Made by a program: the position numbers and the translations under genes. Below, one piece after another: positions 2,418 through 42,135 of a DNA stretch of 42,135 nt (the stretch's first letter is position 1; every line of letters begins with the position of its first letter). The DNA is taken from IMG/VR virus record IMGVR_UViG_2811994932_000001, positions 1-42,135 of that record, one strand, 5' to 3'. The DNA comes from a virus. The notes below the pieces were generated by a model. It worked only from the letters and a program-made list of their open reading frames with translations, was not told where the DNA came from and made no database searches.

Positions 2418-2800
2418 TACGCCCCACCTGCGAGGAGCAGCGACATCTCCACAATGGCATCCTCAAGTTCCTGCGTCCGCCGGCGGAGACCCGGGGCCTC
2501 GGTCGCCTCGGTCATCCCGGCCTGCGCCCATGCCCGGATCTCCCCCTCGTTCGCGGCGAGGTAGGCGAGACCCGCTGCGGACAGGACCGGGCGGTATTCG
2601 CCGGGCTCGATATACTCCGGCTCCGGGAGCGGGACCCAGAGCACCTGCTCCTGATACTCCCACTCCGTGCGCGTGCCCATGTCGTCGGTGATCTCCTTCT
2701 GTACTGCGTCCCAGTGCACCAGCAGCCGCACCCGTCCGTCCTGGACGATGTCGGGCTGCAGGGTTTCGGGCTCTACGGTGCTGCCAACCAGCCTGGCCAT
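2417..2800 (-). CDS. Tail fibre-associated protein/chaperone (XkdW-like position)
   Basis: 127 aa, C-terminal ELEDAIVEMSLLL helix, directly upstream of the XkdX-like gene. Confidence 0.55.
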   Translation of the reverse strand: MARLVGSTVEPETLQPDIVQDGRVRLLVHWDAVQKEITDDMGTRTEWEYQEQVLWVPLPEPEYIEPGEYRPVLSAAGLAYLAANEGEIRAWAQAGMTEATEAPGLRRRTQELEDAIVEMSLLLAGGA

Positions 2801-3837
2801 TTCATTCCTCCTGTAGTTACTGCGTGTTTCACTGCTGTACGAATCGCGGGGTTCTCGTAGAGATACTTCCGCCCGAAGTTGTGACAGTCACAATGCTTTA
2901 ACCACCCATGATATGCCCCCAGAGAACCCAGAATCGCGTCCGGGCTCATCGTCAAGTAGTTCTGCTCGATCTCGCGGACCTTCTTCTTCAGCCGGCGAGC
3001 CGAGGATTTCCGGAGGATCGTGTGCGTCCTGAACGTGCGATACCCAAGGAAATCTACCCCGCAGCGGTCGACCGGGAAGATCGACGTTTTCGGGTTCAGC
3101 CGGAGCCCGAGCGTGTCGAAGAACTCCTCGATCCGGTGGAGGACCTCCTGCAGCCACCCCTTATCGCGGTGCAGAACCACGCCATCGTCGCAGTACCGGA
3201 TGTAGTACCGCGCCCGCATCTTCTCCTTCAGCCAGTGATCGAACGGCGTTAAGTACAAGTTCGAGAAGTACTGCGAGAGGTAATTCCCGATCGGCACACC
3301 TGCGTTCGGCGAGCTGTAGATCACGTCCCGGAGGACCTCGAGCACGCTCCGGTCTTTCACCGTCCGCTGCACGATCTCGTACATCTTGTCCGGCCGGATC
3401 GAGGGGTAGAACTTCGAGATGTCGAATTTCAGGCAGTACCGGGTCCGGTCGGTGTCCATCATGAACCGGCGGAGCCGATACGAGCCCGCATGCAAGCCCT
3501 TACCCGGAATTGCCGAATAGAGGTCGTGAATGAACTGCCGATCCCAGATCGGCTGCATCACCTGCATGACCGCGTGATGGATGATCCGGTCGGGATAGTA
3601 CGGGAGCTTGTAGATCGTCCGCTGCTTCGGCTCGTAGATGACTTTCGTCGTGTAGGGCGAGGTCGCGAACGTTCCGCTGACGAGTTCCTCCTGTAGTTCG
3701 CGGAGATAGTAATCCGGGTCCGCATCAACCAGTTTCACCGCGTAATAGTGCGTCTTGCCTTTGCGGGCGTTCTGGTGCGCTCTCCGGAGGTTATCAATCG
3801 ATACCAGGGTCGAGAAGAGGTCGCCGCGGCGCTTCAT
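2773..3837 (-). CDS. DGR reverse transcriptase
   Basis: 354 aa; DRIIHHA, KFDISKFYPSI, GVPIGNYLSQ, YIRYCDD, DFLGY motifs; adjacent TR/VR pair. Confidence 0.97.
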   Translation of the reverse strand: MKRRGDLFSTLVSIDNLRRAHQNARKGKTHYYAVKLVDADPDYYLRELQEELVSGTFATSPYTTKVIYEPKQRTIYKLPYYPDRIIHHAVMQVMQPIWDRQFIHDLYSAIPGKGLHAGSYRLRRFMMDTDRTRYCLKFDISKFYPSIRPDKMYEIVQRTVKDRSVLEVLRDVIYSSPNAGVPIGNYLSQYFSNLYLTPFDHWLKEKMRARYYIRYCDDGVVLHRDKGWLQEVLHRIEEFFDTLGLRLNPKTSIFPVDRCGVDFLGYRTFRTHTILRKSSARRLKKKVREIEQNYLTMSPDAILGSLGAYHGWLKHCDCHNFGRKYLYENPAIRTAVKHAVTTGGMKWPGWLAAP

Positions 3838-4145
3838 GAGGCAAGCCCCCGCAGCCCTGCCGACAGGAGAGAGCGTTCCGCCGCGCTGACGCGAGTACCA
3901 GCACTCTCCTGTGGACGGGTTTTGTCTTTGGCCCCGACATCGTCGGGACTCGGGTCAGTGCGCTGTTCAGGGCCGCTCAGTCGGAACCTGAGCTCGACGT
4001 GGGTGCCATTGTTGCGATTGGAATTCGAGACCGTGTTATTCGCATTCCGATAGCCGGGACCTGCATTCCGCGCATTATTCCAATTGCCCCCTGCAAGCAG
4101 GAGAAGAGGAAGGCCCCCACAGTGTCGCGCACGAACCAGTATCAT
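3834..4145 (-). CDS. ORF spanning the DGR template repeat and spacer (translation uncertain)
   Basis: 103 aa open frame, purine-rich GGGGGAGGGGAG upstream of ATG, ATGA overlap with RT. Confidence 0.35.
   Translation of the reverse strand: MILVRARHCGGLPLLLLAGGNWNNARNAGPGYRNANNTVSNSNRNNGTHVELRFRLSGPEQRTDPSPDDVGAKDKTRPQESAGTRVSAAERSLLSAGLRGLAS
3993..4102 (-). repeat. DGR template repeat (TR)
   Basis: 110 bp ungapped match to 4494-4603; AAC/AAT-rich; 29 coding-strand adenines. Confidence 0.97.
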
Positions 4146-4164
4146 TGTTTGCTCCCCTCCCCCT

Positions 4165-4455
4165 TCAAGTTAGCGTATAGTACCGGTTGATTTTCCGAAT
4201 GGTCGCGACAAACGGCAGATGCTCTTTATACCGTTCCAGTTGATCAGAGATGACCTCAGACCCGGTGAACAGGACGTGCGTCTCCCCACCCATCTCGAAC
4301 TGCACGGTCGTATACCGCGCGTTCTCCTTGAACTTGCTTTGACCTCGCTTGAAATCGAGAATCAGAACCTCCTGGTTCAGCACATCGTCAATGCCCATCT
4401 TCTTTCCGTCGAGAGGTTTCTCCTCCGTCGCGAAATCAGAAAATTTGGGGTGCGT
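4165..4455 (-). CDS. Small DGR-linked accessory protein, not Avd-like; start at ATG 4398 or ACG 4455
   Basis: Open frame HPKFSDFATEEKPLDGKKMGIDDVLNQEVLILDF...RKINRYYTLT; GGAGGTG lies 7 nt before ACG 4455. Confidence 0.75.
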   Translation of the reverse strand, partial: THPKFSDFATEEKPLDGKKMGIDDVLNQEVLILDFKRGQSKFKENARYTTVQFEMGGETHVLFTGSEVISDQLERYKEHLPFVATIRKINRYYTLT

Positions 4456-4469
4456 CTTATCACACCTCC

Positions 4470-5840
4470 TTATGCCTCTTCAGGGGGCCGGAACTCGACG
4501 CGGGCGCCATCGGAGCGAGCGGAAGACGAGACCGCGTTATTCGCATTCCGAGAGCCGGGACCCGCAGTCCGCGCATGACGCCAAGCGCCCCCCGCAAGCA
4601 GGATTCTGTCTCCGGTTGGCGCGTACCAATTGTCGCACAGATACGTGCTGTCCGATCCGGTTACCGCCGACGGCATGGCAGCCATGCCGCCGAGTTCGTC
4701 TTCCAGCAGCCCCGAGACATAGCCGCTCACCTGCGGGACACCCGATCCTGCTTCATAGGACCCATCGGCCATTGTCCCTGCGAGAGTCCCCGATCCATCG
4801 CGCTTGATGGTGCGGAAGATGCCGCCGGCCTTGAAGTTGCATCCGATGATGAACTTCCAGTCGTTGCCGTAGGGGTTCTCGATCCCTCTCCAGCAGATCG
4901 GGGTCTGCCCGTTCGTTCCGGACCCTACTCCGGTGCCGTTCTCCGCCAGCCGGGAGTCGATACTATCCGCACCGGTGTACTTTCCGGCAAACTTGGTGCC
5001 GCTCGCCAGGTCAACGATCCCTTTTCCGAGCGCAGTCTGGATGTCAAACGTCCCGAACTCCAGATACATCAGGAGTTGGTCGCCGACGTAGTCCCAGAAG
5101 TTCGTGATCCCGAACCCGGTGCCGACGAGGCTCGCGCACTTCTCCGCGATGGTGATGGTGAACTCACCCTCTCTTGTAAGGGTGATGTCAGGCACGTTGG
5201 CGTCGATCAGTCCGGGATACGGATCCCAGTCGGCATGTTCAACAGTGTCTCCCGAGTTCCCCGTCACCGGCTTCTTCCCAGCAGCGCTGCCGAGTTTGAA
5301 GGCGCCCGCGTCAACATACCCATACGCCTCGTAAGCCCCGGAATACAGGTAGTCCGTTGCCGTCGGATCCAGCGGGTCGCCGCGCTGCATGAACGCCGGC
5401 CACAGGGTGAACCCGACGTGCGGCTCTGCGGAGAACCAGTGCCGGAAGTAGGGGTATTTGCACTCGAACTTGTGGTAGTACTTCGGCTTCCGGACCAGCA
5501 CATCGCCGGCGGTGCCGTCGAGCACAAGCCCGTCCCCCCGGCCATTGGGTGAGAGCGTTATCTCCCCGGTCGTCCGGTCCCGGGTGCAGCGGCGGCGGTC
5601 GAAGATCAGATGCTTGTCGAAGTAGTCACTCGGCAGGCTGGTGATATATCGGCCTCCTCCGTCGATCCTGCGGAGCACCGGACTGGTGGAAGATGCGTCC
5701 CACTCAAACCCGATGACATCCCCGGAGTATGGGCGTTTCACGAAGTCGACCAGTTTGTTCCCCGGCGCGACGATCTTCGAGTTCATGGTGTCTGCGTGCA
5801 CCGGATCGGTTGTCAGGATATTCTGGAATGATTCTATCAT
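4470..5840 (-). CDS. DGR target: tail adhesin/receptor-binding protein with C-terminal CLec-type variable region
   Basis: 456 aa; WRGIENPYGN and ILLAGGAW...GARVEF motifs; VR at the extreme C-terminus; follows the tail-collar gene. Confidence 0.9.
   Translation of the reverse strand: MIESFQNILTTDPVHADTMNSKIVAPGNKLVDFVKRPYSGDVIGFEWDASSTSPVLRRIDGGGRYITSLPSDYFDKHLIFDRRRCTRDRTTGEITLSPNGRGDGLVLDGTAGDVLVRKPKYYHKFECKYPYFRHWFSAEPHVGFTLWPAFMQRGDPLDPTATDYLYSGAYEAYGYVDAGAFKLGSAAGKKPVTGNSGDTVEHADWDPYPGLIDANVPDITLTREGEFTITIAEKCASLVGTGFGITNFWDYVGDQLLMYLEFGTFDIQTALGKGIVDLASGTKFAGKYTGADSIDSRLAENGTGVGSGTNGQTPICWRGIENPYGNDWKFIIGCNFKAGGIFRTIKRDGSGTLAGTMADGSYEAGSGVPQVSGYVSGLLEDELGGMAAMPSAVTGSDSTYLCDNWYAPTGDRILLAGGAWRHARTAGPGSRNANNAVSSSARSDGARVEFRPPEEA
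4494..4603 (-). repeat. DGR variable repeat (VR)
   Basis: 19 mismatches to TR, all at TR adenines (9 A>G, 8 A>C, 2 A>T), none at 81 non-A positions. Confidence 0.97.
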
Positions 5841-14401: not shown

Positions 14402-14630
14402 CTATCGCAGCGTTCGCGACCTCCTGGCAAACATCCCAGTCCTCGAAATCGTCAAGCGAAACACGAGGGTTCACGACCAGGTGCTCGAAGATCTCCGCGA
14501 GGAATTTCTCCTCGATGATGTTCCCGAACCGGTTCTTGCACCGGTCCCGGAGCCGCGCCCATTCGCGGGGCGGGATCTTCTTCAGGGTGTACTCGACACC
14601 CCGAATCTCGACCTTCTTCTCTGCCATCAC
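14370..14630 (-). CDS. Tail assembly chaperone
   Basis: 86 aa between tube and tape measure. Confidence 0.75.
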   Translation of the reverse strand: MMAEKKVEIRGVEYTLKKIPPREWARLRDRCKNRFGNIIEEKFLAEIFEHLVVNPRVSLDDFEDWDVCQEVANAAIEFQLGAGLAE

Positions 14631-15031
14631 CGCACCTCGTAGTCGGCGATGCGGATAGTGAACTCAATGTCCGGCACGCTATCTCCCGCAGCGGTGGAGA
14701 GGTCCGGGAGTTTCTCTACCCAGGCTTCTGACCCGCCGGCAGTGAACTCACTGGTGTTCCGGTCCACGAGGTGCACCGGATCAACGTCGTCGCTGTTCGC
14801 CTTCTGCTTCAGGTATGCGAAGTCCGGGCTGGTCCGCTTGAGGGTCACAGTGATGTGGCCGAGCGGGTTCCGGTTCCGGGACCGCGACACCTCTCCCTGT
14901 GCGCCGACGTGCGTTTCCCACCGGTTCGCGTCCTTCCCGGCGGTGATCGGGGTCCCGTCGGCGAGACCGGTGATGGTCCGGCCGGCGAACACGAGCATAT
15001 AGTCTTCAGGGTCGTAGTTTCTGACAGTCAT
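14627..15031 (-). CDS. Tail tube protein (DUF3277-like)
   Basis: 134 aa; NYDPEDY..GRTITGLADGT..HVGAQGEVS pattern; follows sheath. Confidence 0.85.
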   Translation of the reverse strand: MTVRNYDPEDYMLVFAGRTITGLADGTPITAGKDANRWETHVGAQGEVSRSRNRNPLGHITVTLKRTSPDFAYLKQKANSDDVDPVHLVDRNTSEFTAGGSEAWVEKLPDLSTAAGDSVPDIEFTIRIADYEVR

Positions 15032-15042
15032 CTCTTCTCACC

Positions 15043-16095
15043 TCACACACTGATCACGCCGCGCACGGTCACGCTGTGAATCGCACCGGCGAGGGTGAAC
15101 TCGAACTCGACGTCCGGCAGGACACGGTTGGCGATGCTGTTCGCGGCGATCTCGCTCCGCTTCGGCGCGGTCACGGACCACATGCCGTTCCCGTCCGCGT
15201 CGCGGGCAATGATGCCCTGCGCCGTCGCCTGCTGCATGACGCCCTGGACCTCAGAGAGGACCATCGCGATCCCCCGGTCGTCGTACGGGACCTTCGGCGA
15301 CGTCGCGAGCAGCCGGAACACGCCTTCGGCAATCCGGGCCTTGACCCAGTCCTGCGACCGGATCACGTCAATGAACTCGCCCGAGAGAACGGTCCCTTCA
15401 GTCGTGTGGAGGATGCCGCCCTGGGAGATGACCACGTTGCCGTGCTTCTCCTTGATTGCGGCAATCTCCGTCGGGGTGTAGCCGGAGACCGAGATCCCGG
15501 ACAGCGTCTTGAACTTCCAGGTGATCGAGCCGGGGAGCTCCGGAGCGCACCGGCCGACCCAGGCTTCTGCAGGGTACTGGGTCGCTGCACTCTTGTGACA
15601 GAGGATGACCGCCCGGTCGGAGGCGAGCGTCGCGTCATCGAGCGTCTCGAACGCCGTGTTCGTCATGCTGCCGAAGTAGAGTTTGCCGTTCGCTGCCGCA
15701 AAGGCTGCAAGCGCGTCTACGTTCGCTGCCGTCTGGCTCTCCGAGAGGAGGAAGTACCAGTCGTTGTGCCCGGCCGCCATGAGCGCCGTCAGCGCCGTTG
15801 TGAGCGACTCCGGCGAGGTCATGTCGAGCCAGACGACCGCGATCTTCTCCGGGGCAGGGGTCTGCGCGAAGATCTTCTGCGCGATCTTGTAGACCTCGGT
15901 CCCTGCCGTGCCCGGGTCCTCCCCATCCGCCGGGACCAGGGCCGCAACCTCTGCGAGGGTGTTGCAGATACAGTACCCGAGGGTGTCGTAGGTCGTCGTG
16001 CCTTTCGCTCCCACGATGAGCGGGAGCCCGAACCCGGCCTGCGTGACCGGGGTCGTTTCGCGGGTGATTACCACCTGCACATCTTCGATTGTCAT
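15043..16095 (-). CDS. Tail sheath protein (DUF3383-like, compact)
   Basis: 350 aa; GSITWKFKTL, GEFIDVIRSQDW, KVPYDDRGI motifs. Confidence 0.9.
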   Translation of the reverse strand: MTIEDVQVVITRETTPVTQAGFGLPLIVGAKGTTTYDTLGYCICNTLAEVAALVPADGEDPGTAGTEVYKIAQKIFAQTPAPEKIAVVWLDMTSPESLTTALTALMAAGHNDWYFLLSESQTAANVDALAAFAAANGKLYFGSMTNTAFETLDDATLASDRAVILCHKSAATQYPAEAWVGRCAPELPGSITWKFKTLSGISVSGYTPTEIAAIKEKHGNVVISQGGILHTTEGTVLSGEFIDVIRSQDWVKARIAEGVFRLLATSPKVPYDDRGIAMVLSEVQGVMQQATAQGIIARDADGNGMWSVTAPKRSEIAANSIANRVLPDVEFEFTLAGAIHSVTVRGVISV

Positions 16096-16637
16096 GAATC
16101 ACTCCTGGTGGAGCCATACTCCACCATTTCGATGGTCTCAATGTCGATACTGATCTGACTGCAGACCCGAAGCCCCACGTCGAACCCGGCCCGGTACTCG
16201 GCTTCGGTCTCGTCGAGGATCAGAGACCGGTCCTGCACCGGCTCGATCCGCGCGACGACGATGCCCCGGGCCTGCAGCCCGTCGCGGCCATCCAGCGCGA
16301 ACCATCGCCGCGCGTGCATGACCGCCTCATAGCACCCCTGCTGGGTGCCGGCGACGGCCGTGAGACTCCAGACGATCGTCGGGTACTCGGTGCGCTGTTT
16401 CCGGCTCCAGTTCTCCGGGGCGCCGGGCTCCTCCCCCTCCTCCGCCGGCGGGACCTTCACGACGTCCGAGTACTCGATGACCGGCGGAGCGGCCTGCGGG
16501 ATGTAGGGTGAGGTGATGGTATAGGCGAGGAAGGGTTTCGCCGGCCGCGGGCTGTCGTCGTTCGGGACGACTGGCATCGTCAGGTACTGGTAGAGCCGCC
16601 CGACCAGCCAGTTGCGGAGCCCGATCACGTCGTACAT
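16092..16637 (-). CDS. Tail terminator/neck protein (probable start MYDVIG)
   Basis: ATGA overlap at 16637; PFLAYTITSPY and YRAGFDV motifs. Confidence 0.75.
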   Translation of the reverse strand: MYDVIGLRNWLVGRLYQYLTMPVVPNDDSPRPAKPFLAYTITSPYIPQAAPPVIEYSDVVKVPPAEEGEEPGAPENWSRKQRTEYPTIVWSLTAVAGTQQGCYEAVMHARRWFALDGRDGLQARGIVVARIEPVQDRSLILDETEAEYRAGFDVGLRVCSQISIDIETIEMVEYGSTRSDS

Positions 16638-16984
16638 CAGGCCCCGCCCTCCCCGATACGCCGGGCGAAGTAGACCCGGAACCCGCCGTTCGGGCACTGG
16701 ATGTAGACCTTGACGTCCTGCCGGGTGTAGGTCCCGCCGACGTCGTACTTGAGGTCGGACTTCGAGAGTGGGAGGATGATCGCCTCGATCTCCGTCTCCG
16801 TCGGCTCACCGGGGACCCAGATGCCGCCCTGCTCCCAGTCGCGGTACCCTTCTCCCGGGACGCGGAACGTGTAGGTCCCGCCCCACATCGCGAAGACGGA
16901 ATCCCAGACGAAGTGGCCGTCGTGCGGGAGGACTTCCTTGAGTTCGTAGTCCTGCCCGAACCAGGTCACCGTCGCGCCGATCAT
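16637..16984 (-). CDS. Head-closure/head-tail joining protein with apparently permuted segments
   Basis: 115 aa; GGIWVPGEP..AIILPLSKSDLKY..GTYT.QDVKVY and terminal VYFARR motifs; neck position. Confidence 0.75.
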   Translation of the reverse strand: MIGATVTWFGQDYELKEVLPHDGHFVWDSVFAMWGGTYTFRVPGEGYRDWEQGGIWVPGEPTETEIEAIILPLSKSDLKYDVGGTYTRQDVKVYIQCPNGGFRVYFARRIGEGGA

Positions 16985-17511
16985 ACCGGTACCACCTGCC
17001 AGGTAATCGAGTCCCGGAGTTGCCCGGTGTCGATCAGCGGGTTGCTGCTCCCCTTACGCTTGATGGTCGATTCGGCGAGTGGGGGGGTCTTGAGGTCGGT
17101 GAGGTACGCCTGGATCCGGGTGGCGACGAACCCTCCGATGGCGTTGAGGGCCTGCTGGCCCGTGATCTTGCCATCGAGGACCAGACCGAGCAAGTACTCC
17201 ATCTTCCCCTGGATCTCGTCGGCGTTGGCATCGAACCCTGCACGGAGATACGACCGCTCGGGGATGATGATCCACTTCGCGGACTCGTCGCGCTCTTTCG
17301 TCGACCCCCACGGCCCCTGAACGTGCGTGGTCTTGAACCGCTTGGGGATCTTCGCCCCGAACTCGTGCGCATACGCGATCACGAGCATCGTGGCGTCGTC
17401 GGTCCGTTCGGCGTCGGCGAAGATCCCGATATGCACCTGGTGCGTGGCGAGGTAGTTGAGTTCCCTCACCAGGTCAGGGATCCGGTTGAACTTCTCACCC
17501 GTCGTGGTCAC
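16981..17511 (-). CDS. Neck/tail completion protein (HK97 gp10-like)
   Basis: 176 aa; HEFGA, IPERSYLR, SSNPLIDTGQLRDSI motifs. Confidence 0.82.
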   Translation of the reverse strand: MTTTGEKFNRIPDLVRELNYLATHQVHIGIFADAERTDDATMLVIAYAHEFGAKIPKRFKTTHVQGPWGSTKERDESAKWIIIPERSYLRAGFDANADEIQGKMEYLLGLVLDGKITGQQALNAIGGFVATRIQAYLTDLKTPPLAESTIKRKGSSNPLIDTGQLRDSITWQVVPV

Positions 17512-17756
17512 CGGAAGGCCCTCCGATACTTCTGGATGATCCGCCGCATCGAGGTTGGTAACCCGTCGGTCGCAAACGATATCGAGAGGTCAGAGGCTGA
17601 CTGGCTTGCGATGTTCGGATCCCGACCATGATGCTGCATCAGGTACGGGAGGAGGATGTATTCGATGTCCGGCGGGAGCCCGTCGGCAAACGAGCGGTTG
17701 CACTCCCCCTCGATCAGCACAATGTACGCCTGCCGTACCGGGTCCTCGTCAGCCAT
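17508..17756 (-). CDS. Head-tail connector/adaptor
   Basis: 82 aa; ECNRSF.DGLP..SQS.SDLSISF pattern; position. Confidence 0.7.
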   Translation of the reverse strand: MADEDPVRQAYIVLIEGECNRSFADGLPPDIEYILLPYLMQHHGRDPNIASQSASDLSISFATDGLPTSMRRIIQKYRRAFR

Positions 17757-17841: not shown

Positions 17842-18462
17842 TCATGCCTCCGGGATCGCGATGACGAACACGGTGACTGCCCCGGCCGCTGCGGCACCCC
17901 CGGCGGTGATTGCGATCTGGAGCGCCTTGTTCGCTGCCAGGGTCCCGGCGCCCACCAGGACGTCGCCCGCCGTGCCGGCAGTGACGTCGAGGAGTGCCGT
18001 TGCGTCTTCGTCCTCGATCGAGAACTCCGCGCCGTCGGCGATCGTCTCGCCGACCAGGGCGACGACCAGGCAGGCCCGGGCAGCGTCGTCGGCAGTGAGC
18101 AGGGCGATCGGGGACCCTTCGGAGTCATGGGCGACGGTCTTCACGGCCCCGAGCCCGGCGCCGAGGGCCGACGCGAGCGACGCGGTATCCGCGAGTTTAT
18201 CTGCCGTTACCGCGCCTGCAGCGATCTTGGCAGATGTTACAGCATCGGCTGCCAGTTTCTCACCGGTTACCGCGGCGTTTGCGATCTTGCTGGTAGTTAC
18301 TGCCCCTGCAGCGATCTTGCTAACGGTCACCGCACCGTCGGCAACCGCGGCTGCCGGCTTCGAGTTCACGCCATCGTGGTCGTGACCAGCTGTCGGCGAG
18401 AACAGCTGCTCAAAAAACTCCCGCTGCGAGCGCGGGAAAGGAACTTTGTCTAACAGGCCCAT
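17842..18462 (-). CDS. Head fibre/decoration protein with 10-aa repeats
   Basis: 206 aa; GHDHDGVNSK then 5 x (I/L/V)AxxAVTxxK. Confidence 0.65.
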   Translation of the reverse strand: MGLLDKVPFPRSQREFFEQLFSPTAGHDHDGVNSKPAAAVADGAVTVSKIAAGAVTTSKIANAAVTGEKLAADAVTSAKIAAGAVTADKLADTASLASALGAGLGAVKTVAHDSEGSPIALLTADDAARACLVVALVGETIADGAEFSIEDEDATALLDVTAGTAGDVLVGAGTLAANKALQIAITAGGAAAAGAVTVFVIAIPEA

Positions 18463-40658: not shown

Positions 40659-40963
40659 TGTTGCTGCCAGTTAGGGTCTCCCCACGCCGCCGTATATGGG
40701 TAGATGTGTCATTCTGCTATGAGAAGCAGGTTTATGCCGGATCTCTAGAGGACATCTCTCGATACATCCTCAAGTATGGCCATGTCGACGGAGTCTATGA
40801 GGACGAACAAATCGCATATGATGTCAAGCGCACCGCTACAGCTATGCTCCGGGACGGGGTCCGTCCTGATCAAGTGGTGGAGGAGATCTCTGCCCTCTAC
40901 TGCATCCCGATCGGGTGCGTCGAAGAGGTCGTTGACGAGGTCGCCACGGCGAGCCCCGTCTAG
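40655..40963 (+). CDS. Hypothetical protein co-transcribed with the repressor
   Basis: 102 aa; ATGA overlap; its stop shares a CTAG with the integrase stop. Confidence 0.6.
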   Translation: MMLLPVRVSPRRRIWVDVSFCYEKQVYAGSLEDISRYILKYGHVDGVYEDEQIAYDVKRTATAMLRDGVRPDQVVEEISALYCIPIGCVEEVVDEVATASPV

Positions 40964-42135
40964 CTCTCCTTCGCCGCCCGGATCCGCTCATCGATCAGCC
41001 GCTGCAGCGCCTCCGGGTGCGCGGCGACGCTGGACCGCATCGCGATCATCTCCGCCATCTGCCGCTGCATCCGGTCATACTTCTCCTGGAGGTCCTGATA
41101 ATCGGCCTCCACCTGCCGCAGTTGTGCCTCGTTGATCGGCTTGGTCTTAAAGATCCAAAGGACAGATTCCGCCGTCAGGTATGCCGTCTCGATCTCCTCC
41201 TCGGTCAGCCGCACATATGCCCCGCTGCAATATCCCTCGTGGCCGAGCATCTGCTCGACCGCGTCGATCGACGCACCGCCCTGGGGGAGCCGGGTCCGGA
41301 AATATTTCCGCATCACATGCAGCCTGAGCACATACCATCCGGTTGTCGGGTCCTTCTCGTCGAGCCCGCACTTCTCCAGGATCCGAACGTACTTGTCCCG
41401 CAACCCATTGTACGTGAGCGGGAACACCCGTTTCGTATTCCGCACAAACTCCTCCGGGACAGTATACCCGTCGATTTTTTCGGCGTATGCCGGATGATAG
41501 TGCATCCACTGCGTGAGGATCTCCCGGGCCTCGGAGGAGAGGTATGTGTCCCGAGGCTCCCCGGTCTTCGAGACCTCTTTCCGGATATGGATCTTCCCGC
41601 GCTCGAGGTCGATATCGCTCCATTCAATTCCGAGTCCTTCTCCCGGCCGCATCCCAGAGGACGTCAGCGCGAAGATATAGGCCCGCATCTGGAGGTCGGA
41701 GTGGTTCAGGATGTGCCGCAGTTCTTCCTGCGTGGGAGCGCGGTCTCGCGTCAAGGGCCGGCCGCCGACCTTGATCCGCCGGGTCATCTCCGCCGGGAGG
41801 TAGATGTGGTTCTCCGCGAGCCACGAGATGATGGCCGCCTTGTAGGTCGAGACCGAAGTGGGGGCCGCGTCCGCGTTCTCCCGGAGAAAGTCCCGGACGT
41901 CGTCCGCAAAATCGAACTCGTCATGGCCGTTGTTGAGGTATTCGAGGGCGAGGGTATCGTAGTGCTCGACGTCCACCAGCCCGCGCCCGCCCGGCGTGGT
42001 CCGTCGGATGTCCTCCTCCTCATTGATCCATGCGAGGAACTTCACCAGGGCCGACCGATACGAGCGGGCGGTATTTTTCGGCCGGCTCTTGACGAAGCGA
42101 GAAATATTGCGGGTTCTTTTTCGTGAGGGGTTCAT
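40960..42135 (-). CDS. int: Tyrosine integrase
   Basis: 391 aa; SGMRPGE, SKTG, LHVMRKY, MLGH, AYVR (R-K-H-R-H-Y catalytic set). Confidence 0.95.
   Translation of the reverse strand: MNPSRKRTRNISRFVKSRPKNTARSYRSALVKFLAWINEEEDIRRTTPGGRGLVDVEHYDTLALEYLNNGHDEFDFADDVRDFLRENADAAPTSVSTYKAAIISWLAENHIYLPAEMTRRIKVGGRPLTRDRAPTQEELRHILNHSDLQMRAYIFALTSSGMRPGEGLGIEWSDIDLERGKIHIRKEVSKTGEPRDTYLSSEAREILTQWMHYHPAYAEKIDGYTVPEEFVRNTKRVFPLTYNGLRDKYVRILEKCGLDEKDPTTGWYVLRLHVMRKYFRTRLPQGGASIDAVEQMLGHEGYCSGAYVRLTEEEIETAYLTAESVLWIFKTKPINEAQLRQVEADYQDLQEKYDRMQRQMAEMIAMRSSVAAHPEALQRLIDERIRAAKES

Follow-up and report, generated by a model that had tools for sequence, protein, structure and literature searches.

Is a head-closure protein whose segments stand in a different order from those of its relatives a natural product of phage evolution, one state of a switch, or an error in the record? 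The question is raised by an open reading frame at 16637-16984 on the minus strand of the window, by which we mean the whole 42,135-nucleotide stretch analysed here, a complete 42,135-bp provirus record rated 100% complete. The gene encodes a protein of 115 amino acids, followed by a stop, that begins with MIGATVTWFGQDYELKEVLPHD and ends with ...KVYIQCPNGGFRVYFARRIGEGGA. Its start overlaps the stop codon of the upstream gene (ATGA, 16984-16981), and the ATG of the next gene downstream overlaps its own stop (TGATG, 16639-16635). An earlier note, made from the letters alone, had described the gene as internally permuted yet in frame, and re-reading the open reading frame bore out its account of the frame, of the first and last residues and of both overlaps. 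We conclude that this is very probably the head-closure or stopper gene of a contractile-tailed provirus in which an ancestral hairpin was moved, such that the segment order C-B-D became B-C-D, and that the change is old, was probably fixed once, has been retained by selection and does not involve switching.

The gene (Hc1-type, resembling gp11 of cyanophage Pam3) is part of a myophage neck module encoded throughout on the minus strand. It is preceded by a head-tail adaptor (17508-17756; PHROG 1161, E 2.7e-10) and, as its immediate upstream neighbour, a Neck1 or 'tail completion' protein (16981-17511; PHROG 222, E 5.2e-47), and is followed by the tail terminator (16092-16637; PF23961, E 4.7e-20; PHROG 1232, E 1.9e-24), the tail sheath (15043-16095; PHROG 205, E 9e-87) and the tail tube (14627-15031). 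The same place, after adaptor and Neck1 and before terminator and sheath, is occupied by the corresponding genes of Sam46, Roos and AP45, and the sparsely annotated gene order of D6E is consistent with such a module. The window also encodes an SPP1-type portal, a large terminase, a major capsid protein and an integrase. Located between the genes for capsid and neck, a 206-aa open reading frame (17842-18462, minus strand) has repeated 'AAGAVT..KIA'-like motifs and no Pfam match; a head fibre or a decoration protein is a possible identity for its product.

Several further features of the window were recorded. A diversity-generating retroelement occupies 2773-5840 on the minus strand, with its reverse transcriptase at 2773-3837 (RVT_1, E 2e-18) and a pair of 116-nt repeats (3987-4102 and 4488-4603) that are 82% identical. 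The two repeats differ almost exclusively at positions where the copy adjoining the reverse transcriptase has an adenine, which identifies this copy as the template repeat; its partner is at the 3' end of the open reading frame 4470-5840 and would be the variable repeat, and that frame is a probable tail-fibre or receptor-binding gene. The ends of the record (1-1179 and 40960-42135, both minus strand) carry a class-V aminotransferase or SepSecS-like PLP enzyme and a tyrosine integrase, the former belonging to the host flank or else being an auxiliary gene. A search for tRNA genes in the window was negative. A scan of GTDB species genomes with the alignment of the permuted clade produced 40 pattern matches, of which none was confirmed as a relative, and identified no host.

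Membership of the protein in the stopper family is indicated from several directions. It is matched by Sam46 gp10, an 'XkdH-like head completion protein' (E 1e-6), and scores 85-104 bits against a hidden Markov model (HMM) of its canonical relatives, whose own profile matches Pam3 gp11 (8hdr_A, E 1.1e-4). Matches to PHROG 22797 (E 1.7e-9) and to PHROG 939, annotated 'head protein' (E 3.2e-6), cover residues 42-96 only, with an offset of ~20. A Pfam search with the window protein returned only a sub-threshold CarboxypepD_reg match, and nothing above the gathering score for PF05521 (Phage_HCP), which itself matched just one of 54 canonical relatives (E 0.0016). By its profile matches and gene order, then, the window protein is a homolog of the stopper or head-closure family in the family's usual genomic place. 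Single-sequence matches to AmpDH2 in the PDB (E about 0.09) were discarded as spurious. The stretch GTYTFRVPGEGYRDW at 16837-16878 (residues ~36-49) resembles the G.Y...GY motif of carboxypeptidase-regulatory-like β-sandwich repeats, and this resemblance accounts for spurious multi-repeat matches in the broad search: the long repeat proteins P0018, P0049, P0054 and others align over residues about 18-78 only, through a G.Y...GY..W motif, and were set aside as unrelated.

The anomaly becomes apparent when homologs are compared along their length. Among the 75 matches from an exhaustive phmmer search of 1.84 billion representatives, only P0011, P0012, P0014 and P0022 were collinear with the window protein from end to end; the truncated P0007 was so over residues 1-75. 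Of the representatives, about 55 with lengths of 100-135 aa aligned with an offset of about -21 to -25, placing query residue ~29 on residue ~4, and many of them showed a second matched stretch. These are the canonical relatives, and in them the hairpin occupies residues ~75-105, following the KxY strand and preceding the last, YxARR strand, which is the order that the earlier note had given for the family. A hairpin of the form G..[IV]...G..Y.[IV]...DY separates the KxY strand from the last, YxxRR strand in their sequences and in those of Sam46 gp10, Roos, AP45 and D6E. The window protein departs from this collinear topology. Codons 2-22 (16919-16981, minus strand) encode the relocated β-hairpin, segment B, with predicted strands at residues 5-8 and 11-18; codons 23-98 (16691-16918, minus strand) encode the core, segment C, which is collinear with the N-terminal three quarters of the canonical relatives and comprises a helix, a long hairpin, a second helix and the KxY strand. 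A five-residue loop, C-P-N-G-G (codons 97-101; 16682-16696, minus strand), stands at the site where canonical relatives have a hairpin of 20-30 residues, and codons 102-115 (16640-16681, minus strand) contribute the last strand, FRVYFARR, and tail as part of segment D, for which a strand is predicted at residues 102-112.

Each of the three segments is homologous to a part of the canonical protein. Against a canonical HMM built from 60 canonical sequences, the native protein aligned in three pieces (85.2 bits): residues 3-17 on positions 81-95, residues 25-96 on positions 4-75 and residues 101-113 on positions 104-116. When the 60-nt block 16980-16921 was moved to follow 16920-16690, the frame was preserved and the sequence predicted by the earlier note was obtained; the product aligned as one domain over HMM positions 2-116, at 103.5 bits. 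Neither shuffled hairpins (94.4±1.9 bits) nor random 20-mers from this phage set in place of the hairpin (93.6±1.7 bits) reached the real score of 103.7 bits in any of 1000 trials each. The insertion and the deletion are reciprocal: in alignment A2 the permuted rows have ~21 extra residues at the N-terminus, and all 11 have a gap of about 40 columns at the canonical hairpin site. By these alignments, a two-strand hairpin that lies near the back end of the relatives is at the front of the window protein.

The most serious rival is convergence, according to which an internal hairpin was deleted and an unrelated, similar one gained at the N-terminus, so that nothing homologous was relocated. The moved segment is short (about 21 aa), hairpins of the G..Y.[IV] kind are common in small β-proteins, and no protein with both hairpins was found among the about 75 representatives that could serve as an intermediate. 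Moreover, the window's own hairpin is weak when considered alone, scoring 3.6 bits (E 0.004 for a single sequence) against an HMM of the hairpin, and the argument for relocation accordingly rests on the profile of the clade and on its relatives. Here, however, the comparison speaks against convergence. Aligned on their own with hhalign, the first 23 columns of the permuted clade fell on canonical columns 78-100 with 94% probability and an E-value of 9.6e-8, and alignment of the full-length profiles left a 20-residue gap exactly at the canonical place of the hairpin. The 2000 control segments, as noted, never reached the real score against the canonical HMM. The hairpin-only HMM found one N-terminal match (residues 2-22) in each of the 11 permuted members; in canonical members it found one substantive internal match each, any second match scoring 7 bits or less. 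Proteins that it did not match were confined to the unrelated repeat protein P0063 and the truncated or divergent P0070, P0073 and P0077. The most telling pair joins the two arrangements directly: the hairpin of the canonical protein P0085, KYRGLRYKILEEKLYDKH, resembles the N-terminus of the permuted P0012, RYRGLEYDIMERRLYDKH, with about 12 of 18 residues identical, including the trailing LYDKH. P0085 was the only new protein to emerge from a word-based search with the clade alignment. We consider convergence improbable on this evidence, and the displacement of a homologous hairpin remains the reading that we prefer.

The phylogeny was examined using the 93 shared columns only, both hairpin regions having been removed. 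All 11 permuted rows fell within one clade of 18 rows (support 96/92), of which the other seven are canonical (P0013, P0015, P0031, P0032, P0047, P0072 and P0085). A free search divided the permuted rows into three groups across weak forks; a tree that held them together was 4.2 lnL units better than this (AU p 0.64). A single origin of the permuted order is thus compatible with, and slightly favoured by, the 93 columns.

The order is conserved across a diverse clade. B-C-D is common to 11 protein clusters, down to 31-35% identity and within the same gene neighbourhood; seven of these, from JGI, ENA, NCBI and Logan data, are 69-90% identical to the window protein, and the order also occurs in members at 60%, 47%, 35% and 31% identity. 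In the permuted P0012 and P0014, a gene of Neck1 size precedes the permuted gene and a PF23961 terminator follows it. P0014 (L006:2314-2898) and P0022 possess an extra C-terminal domain of about 80 aa, for a total of 194 aa, without a Pfam match.

Independent assemblies of the locus itself agree. Twenty sequencing runs from 10 studies contained the locus, and the metagenomes concerned were of digester, aquatic, landfill, wastewater and hydrocarbon origin. One contig of 21.4 kb, from a different study, spans it and differs by 17 substitutions, without gaps; another of 537 nt, from a third study, extends over 16486-17022 and includes all of the junctions. Listed variants in hairpin codons 2, 4, 20 and 22 are without exception synonymous third-position changes. 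Judged by its codons and overlaps, the permuted gene has an intact frame, is coupled in translation to both neighbours and is subject to purifying selection. In the downstream terminator gene, contigs of two other studies (X6 and X9) have 12 different letters in place of 45 nt at 16412-16458, a variable patch of indel type between close relatives.

A programmed or recurrent DNA switch between B-C-D and C-B-D, acting through short repeats at the junctions, is scarcely tenable. The earlier note had pointed to a near-repeat shared by the three junctions and had proposed that a circle was excised and reinserted at another repeat. The three 7-mers are indeed present, encoding I-G, D-G and N-G with the usual GC-rich codons, and two of the junctions further share an 11-nt near-repeat (16684-16694 and 16918-16928). 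However, such 7-mers are common in this GC-rich DNA, the window containing 40 copies of GAWCGGC where 29.6 would be expected; a third copy of the 11-mer lies beyond the gene; and the 7-mer motifs are absent from the matching junctions of P0012 and P0014. We ruled out the near-repeats as recombination scars on the strength of the copy number and of the absence in these relatives, and the excised circle loses its support with them. The permuted order, moreover, is fixed in homologs down to 31% identity. Contigs of four runs from four studies, in which rare forms could be missed, contained no alternative order, and no joint was found inside the permuted gene, the sole joint lying in the terminator gene, outside the open reading frame. 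The earlier note's suggestion of a switchable DNA or RNA unscrambling event therefore fails, homologs at 31-90% identity and contigs of other studies having the same order and no alternative joint.

It is just as hard to credit that the order is an artefact of assembly or file handling, or the gene a defective remnant in a decaying provirus. The element is indeed a metagenomic provirus record, and the 60-nt block does fill one line (number 283) of a 60-column listing, a coincidence of which the earlier note had warned. But the block would not align with a line if set in its canonical position; independent assemblies and proteins from JGI, ENA, NCBI and Logan data have the same order; and the frame, the coupling at both ends, the purifying selection and the completeness of the record are not those of a pseudogene. 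The line coincidence is irrelevant because homologs and independent assemblies share the order. Artefact, defective gene and switch are alike rejected by the order in the homologs, by contigs of other studies without internal joints and by the synonymous variants in the hairpin. That close homologs share the order, which the earlier note had listed as evidence against its reading, does refute an event specific to this locus, but not a permutation at the level of the family; the first of the possibilities it had offered, a natural strand-permuted virion protein, is the one that profiles, structure prediction, synteny and the tree support.

Structure prediction is in keeping with a relocated hairpin. 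The AF2 model of the window protein (pLDDT 85.6) contains β5-8, β11-18, α28-34, β36-49, β55-72, α75-79, β91-96 and β102-112, and its N-terminal hairpin is predicted with confidence (pLDDT 90-92). The model of the canonical P0015 (pLDDT 90.9) has the same elements, with the hairpin at 86-100. Pam3 gp11 was the best Foldseek match for both models, at a TM score of 0.42 for the window model versus 0.59-0.64 for the canonical one. When VIA-align was applied against solved neck proteins, the N-terminal hairpin of the window model never fell inside the alignments. In Pam3, gp11 forms a hexameric ring under the dodecameric adaptor, with two downward hairpins that grip the terminator's N-terminal loop (PMC9942802). 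From the predicted strand order we infer that the moved hairpin corresponds to one of these, the 'downward' β5-β6 hairpin of gp11.

We propose that the hairpin would have been moved at the DNA level, in an ancestor common to a small clade, from its place between the KxY and last strands to a position just after the start codon, the old site being closed by the five-residue loop. Candidate routes are a duplication of C-B followed by two deletions, or a duplication of the hairpin followed by loss of the original. The rearrangement would be old, fixed once, kept by selection and free of switching today. The event predates the divergence of members that are now about 31-35% identical, and hence no recombination scar is expected to survive. 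The product would be, as in solved relatives, a small β-barrel ring under the head-tail adaptor that docks the tail terminator. The chances are about even that the relocated hairpin still fills the equivalent place in the ring; that it is specifically the terminator-clasping β5-β6 hairpin, reaching the same ring site through a different chain connectivity, is slightly less probable. Were the same ring site indeed occupied, this would be a natural, sequence-traceable, non-cyclic transposition of a strand pair in a virion interface protein, and the head-to-tail joint would be seen to tolerate topological rewiring.

A search of a limited set of literature for permutation in stopper or head-completion proteins returned no report, only circularly permuted genomes. 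Among known systems, the closest counterpart is the connector gp11 of cyanophage Pam3 (PDB 8HDR chain A), which shares the genomic context, a myophage neck between adaptor and terminator, and gives the canonical relatives of the window protein their best sequence-profile match. The other proteins of 'Hc1' fold, namely the SPP1 gp16 stopper, λ gpFII and XkdH of the B. subtilis element PBSX, are collinear in the order C-B-D, whereas the window protein is B-C-D; the solved Hc1 chains compared were PDB 7Z4W chain 1, 8K37 chain M, which we take to be λ gpFII, and 3F3B. B-C-D is not a cyclic rotation of C-B-D, and the change is thus no circular permutation. As far as alignment of its segments can tell, the permutation is of a rare, non-cyclic kind in which every segment has kept its sequence similarity. 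The clade offers a clean example of this kind of change, and of proteins that annotation tools which assume collinearity will under-score. Rewired folds are known in the form of circular permutations, such as that relating saposin and swaposin, and of swapped-hairpin β-barrels. The present case resembles them in that an element of secondary structure takes up a new position along the chain while the family persists, as presumably does the fold; it differs from most reported rewirings in that all three segments can still be recognised by their sequence similarity.
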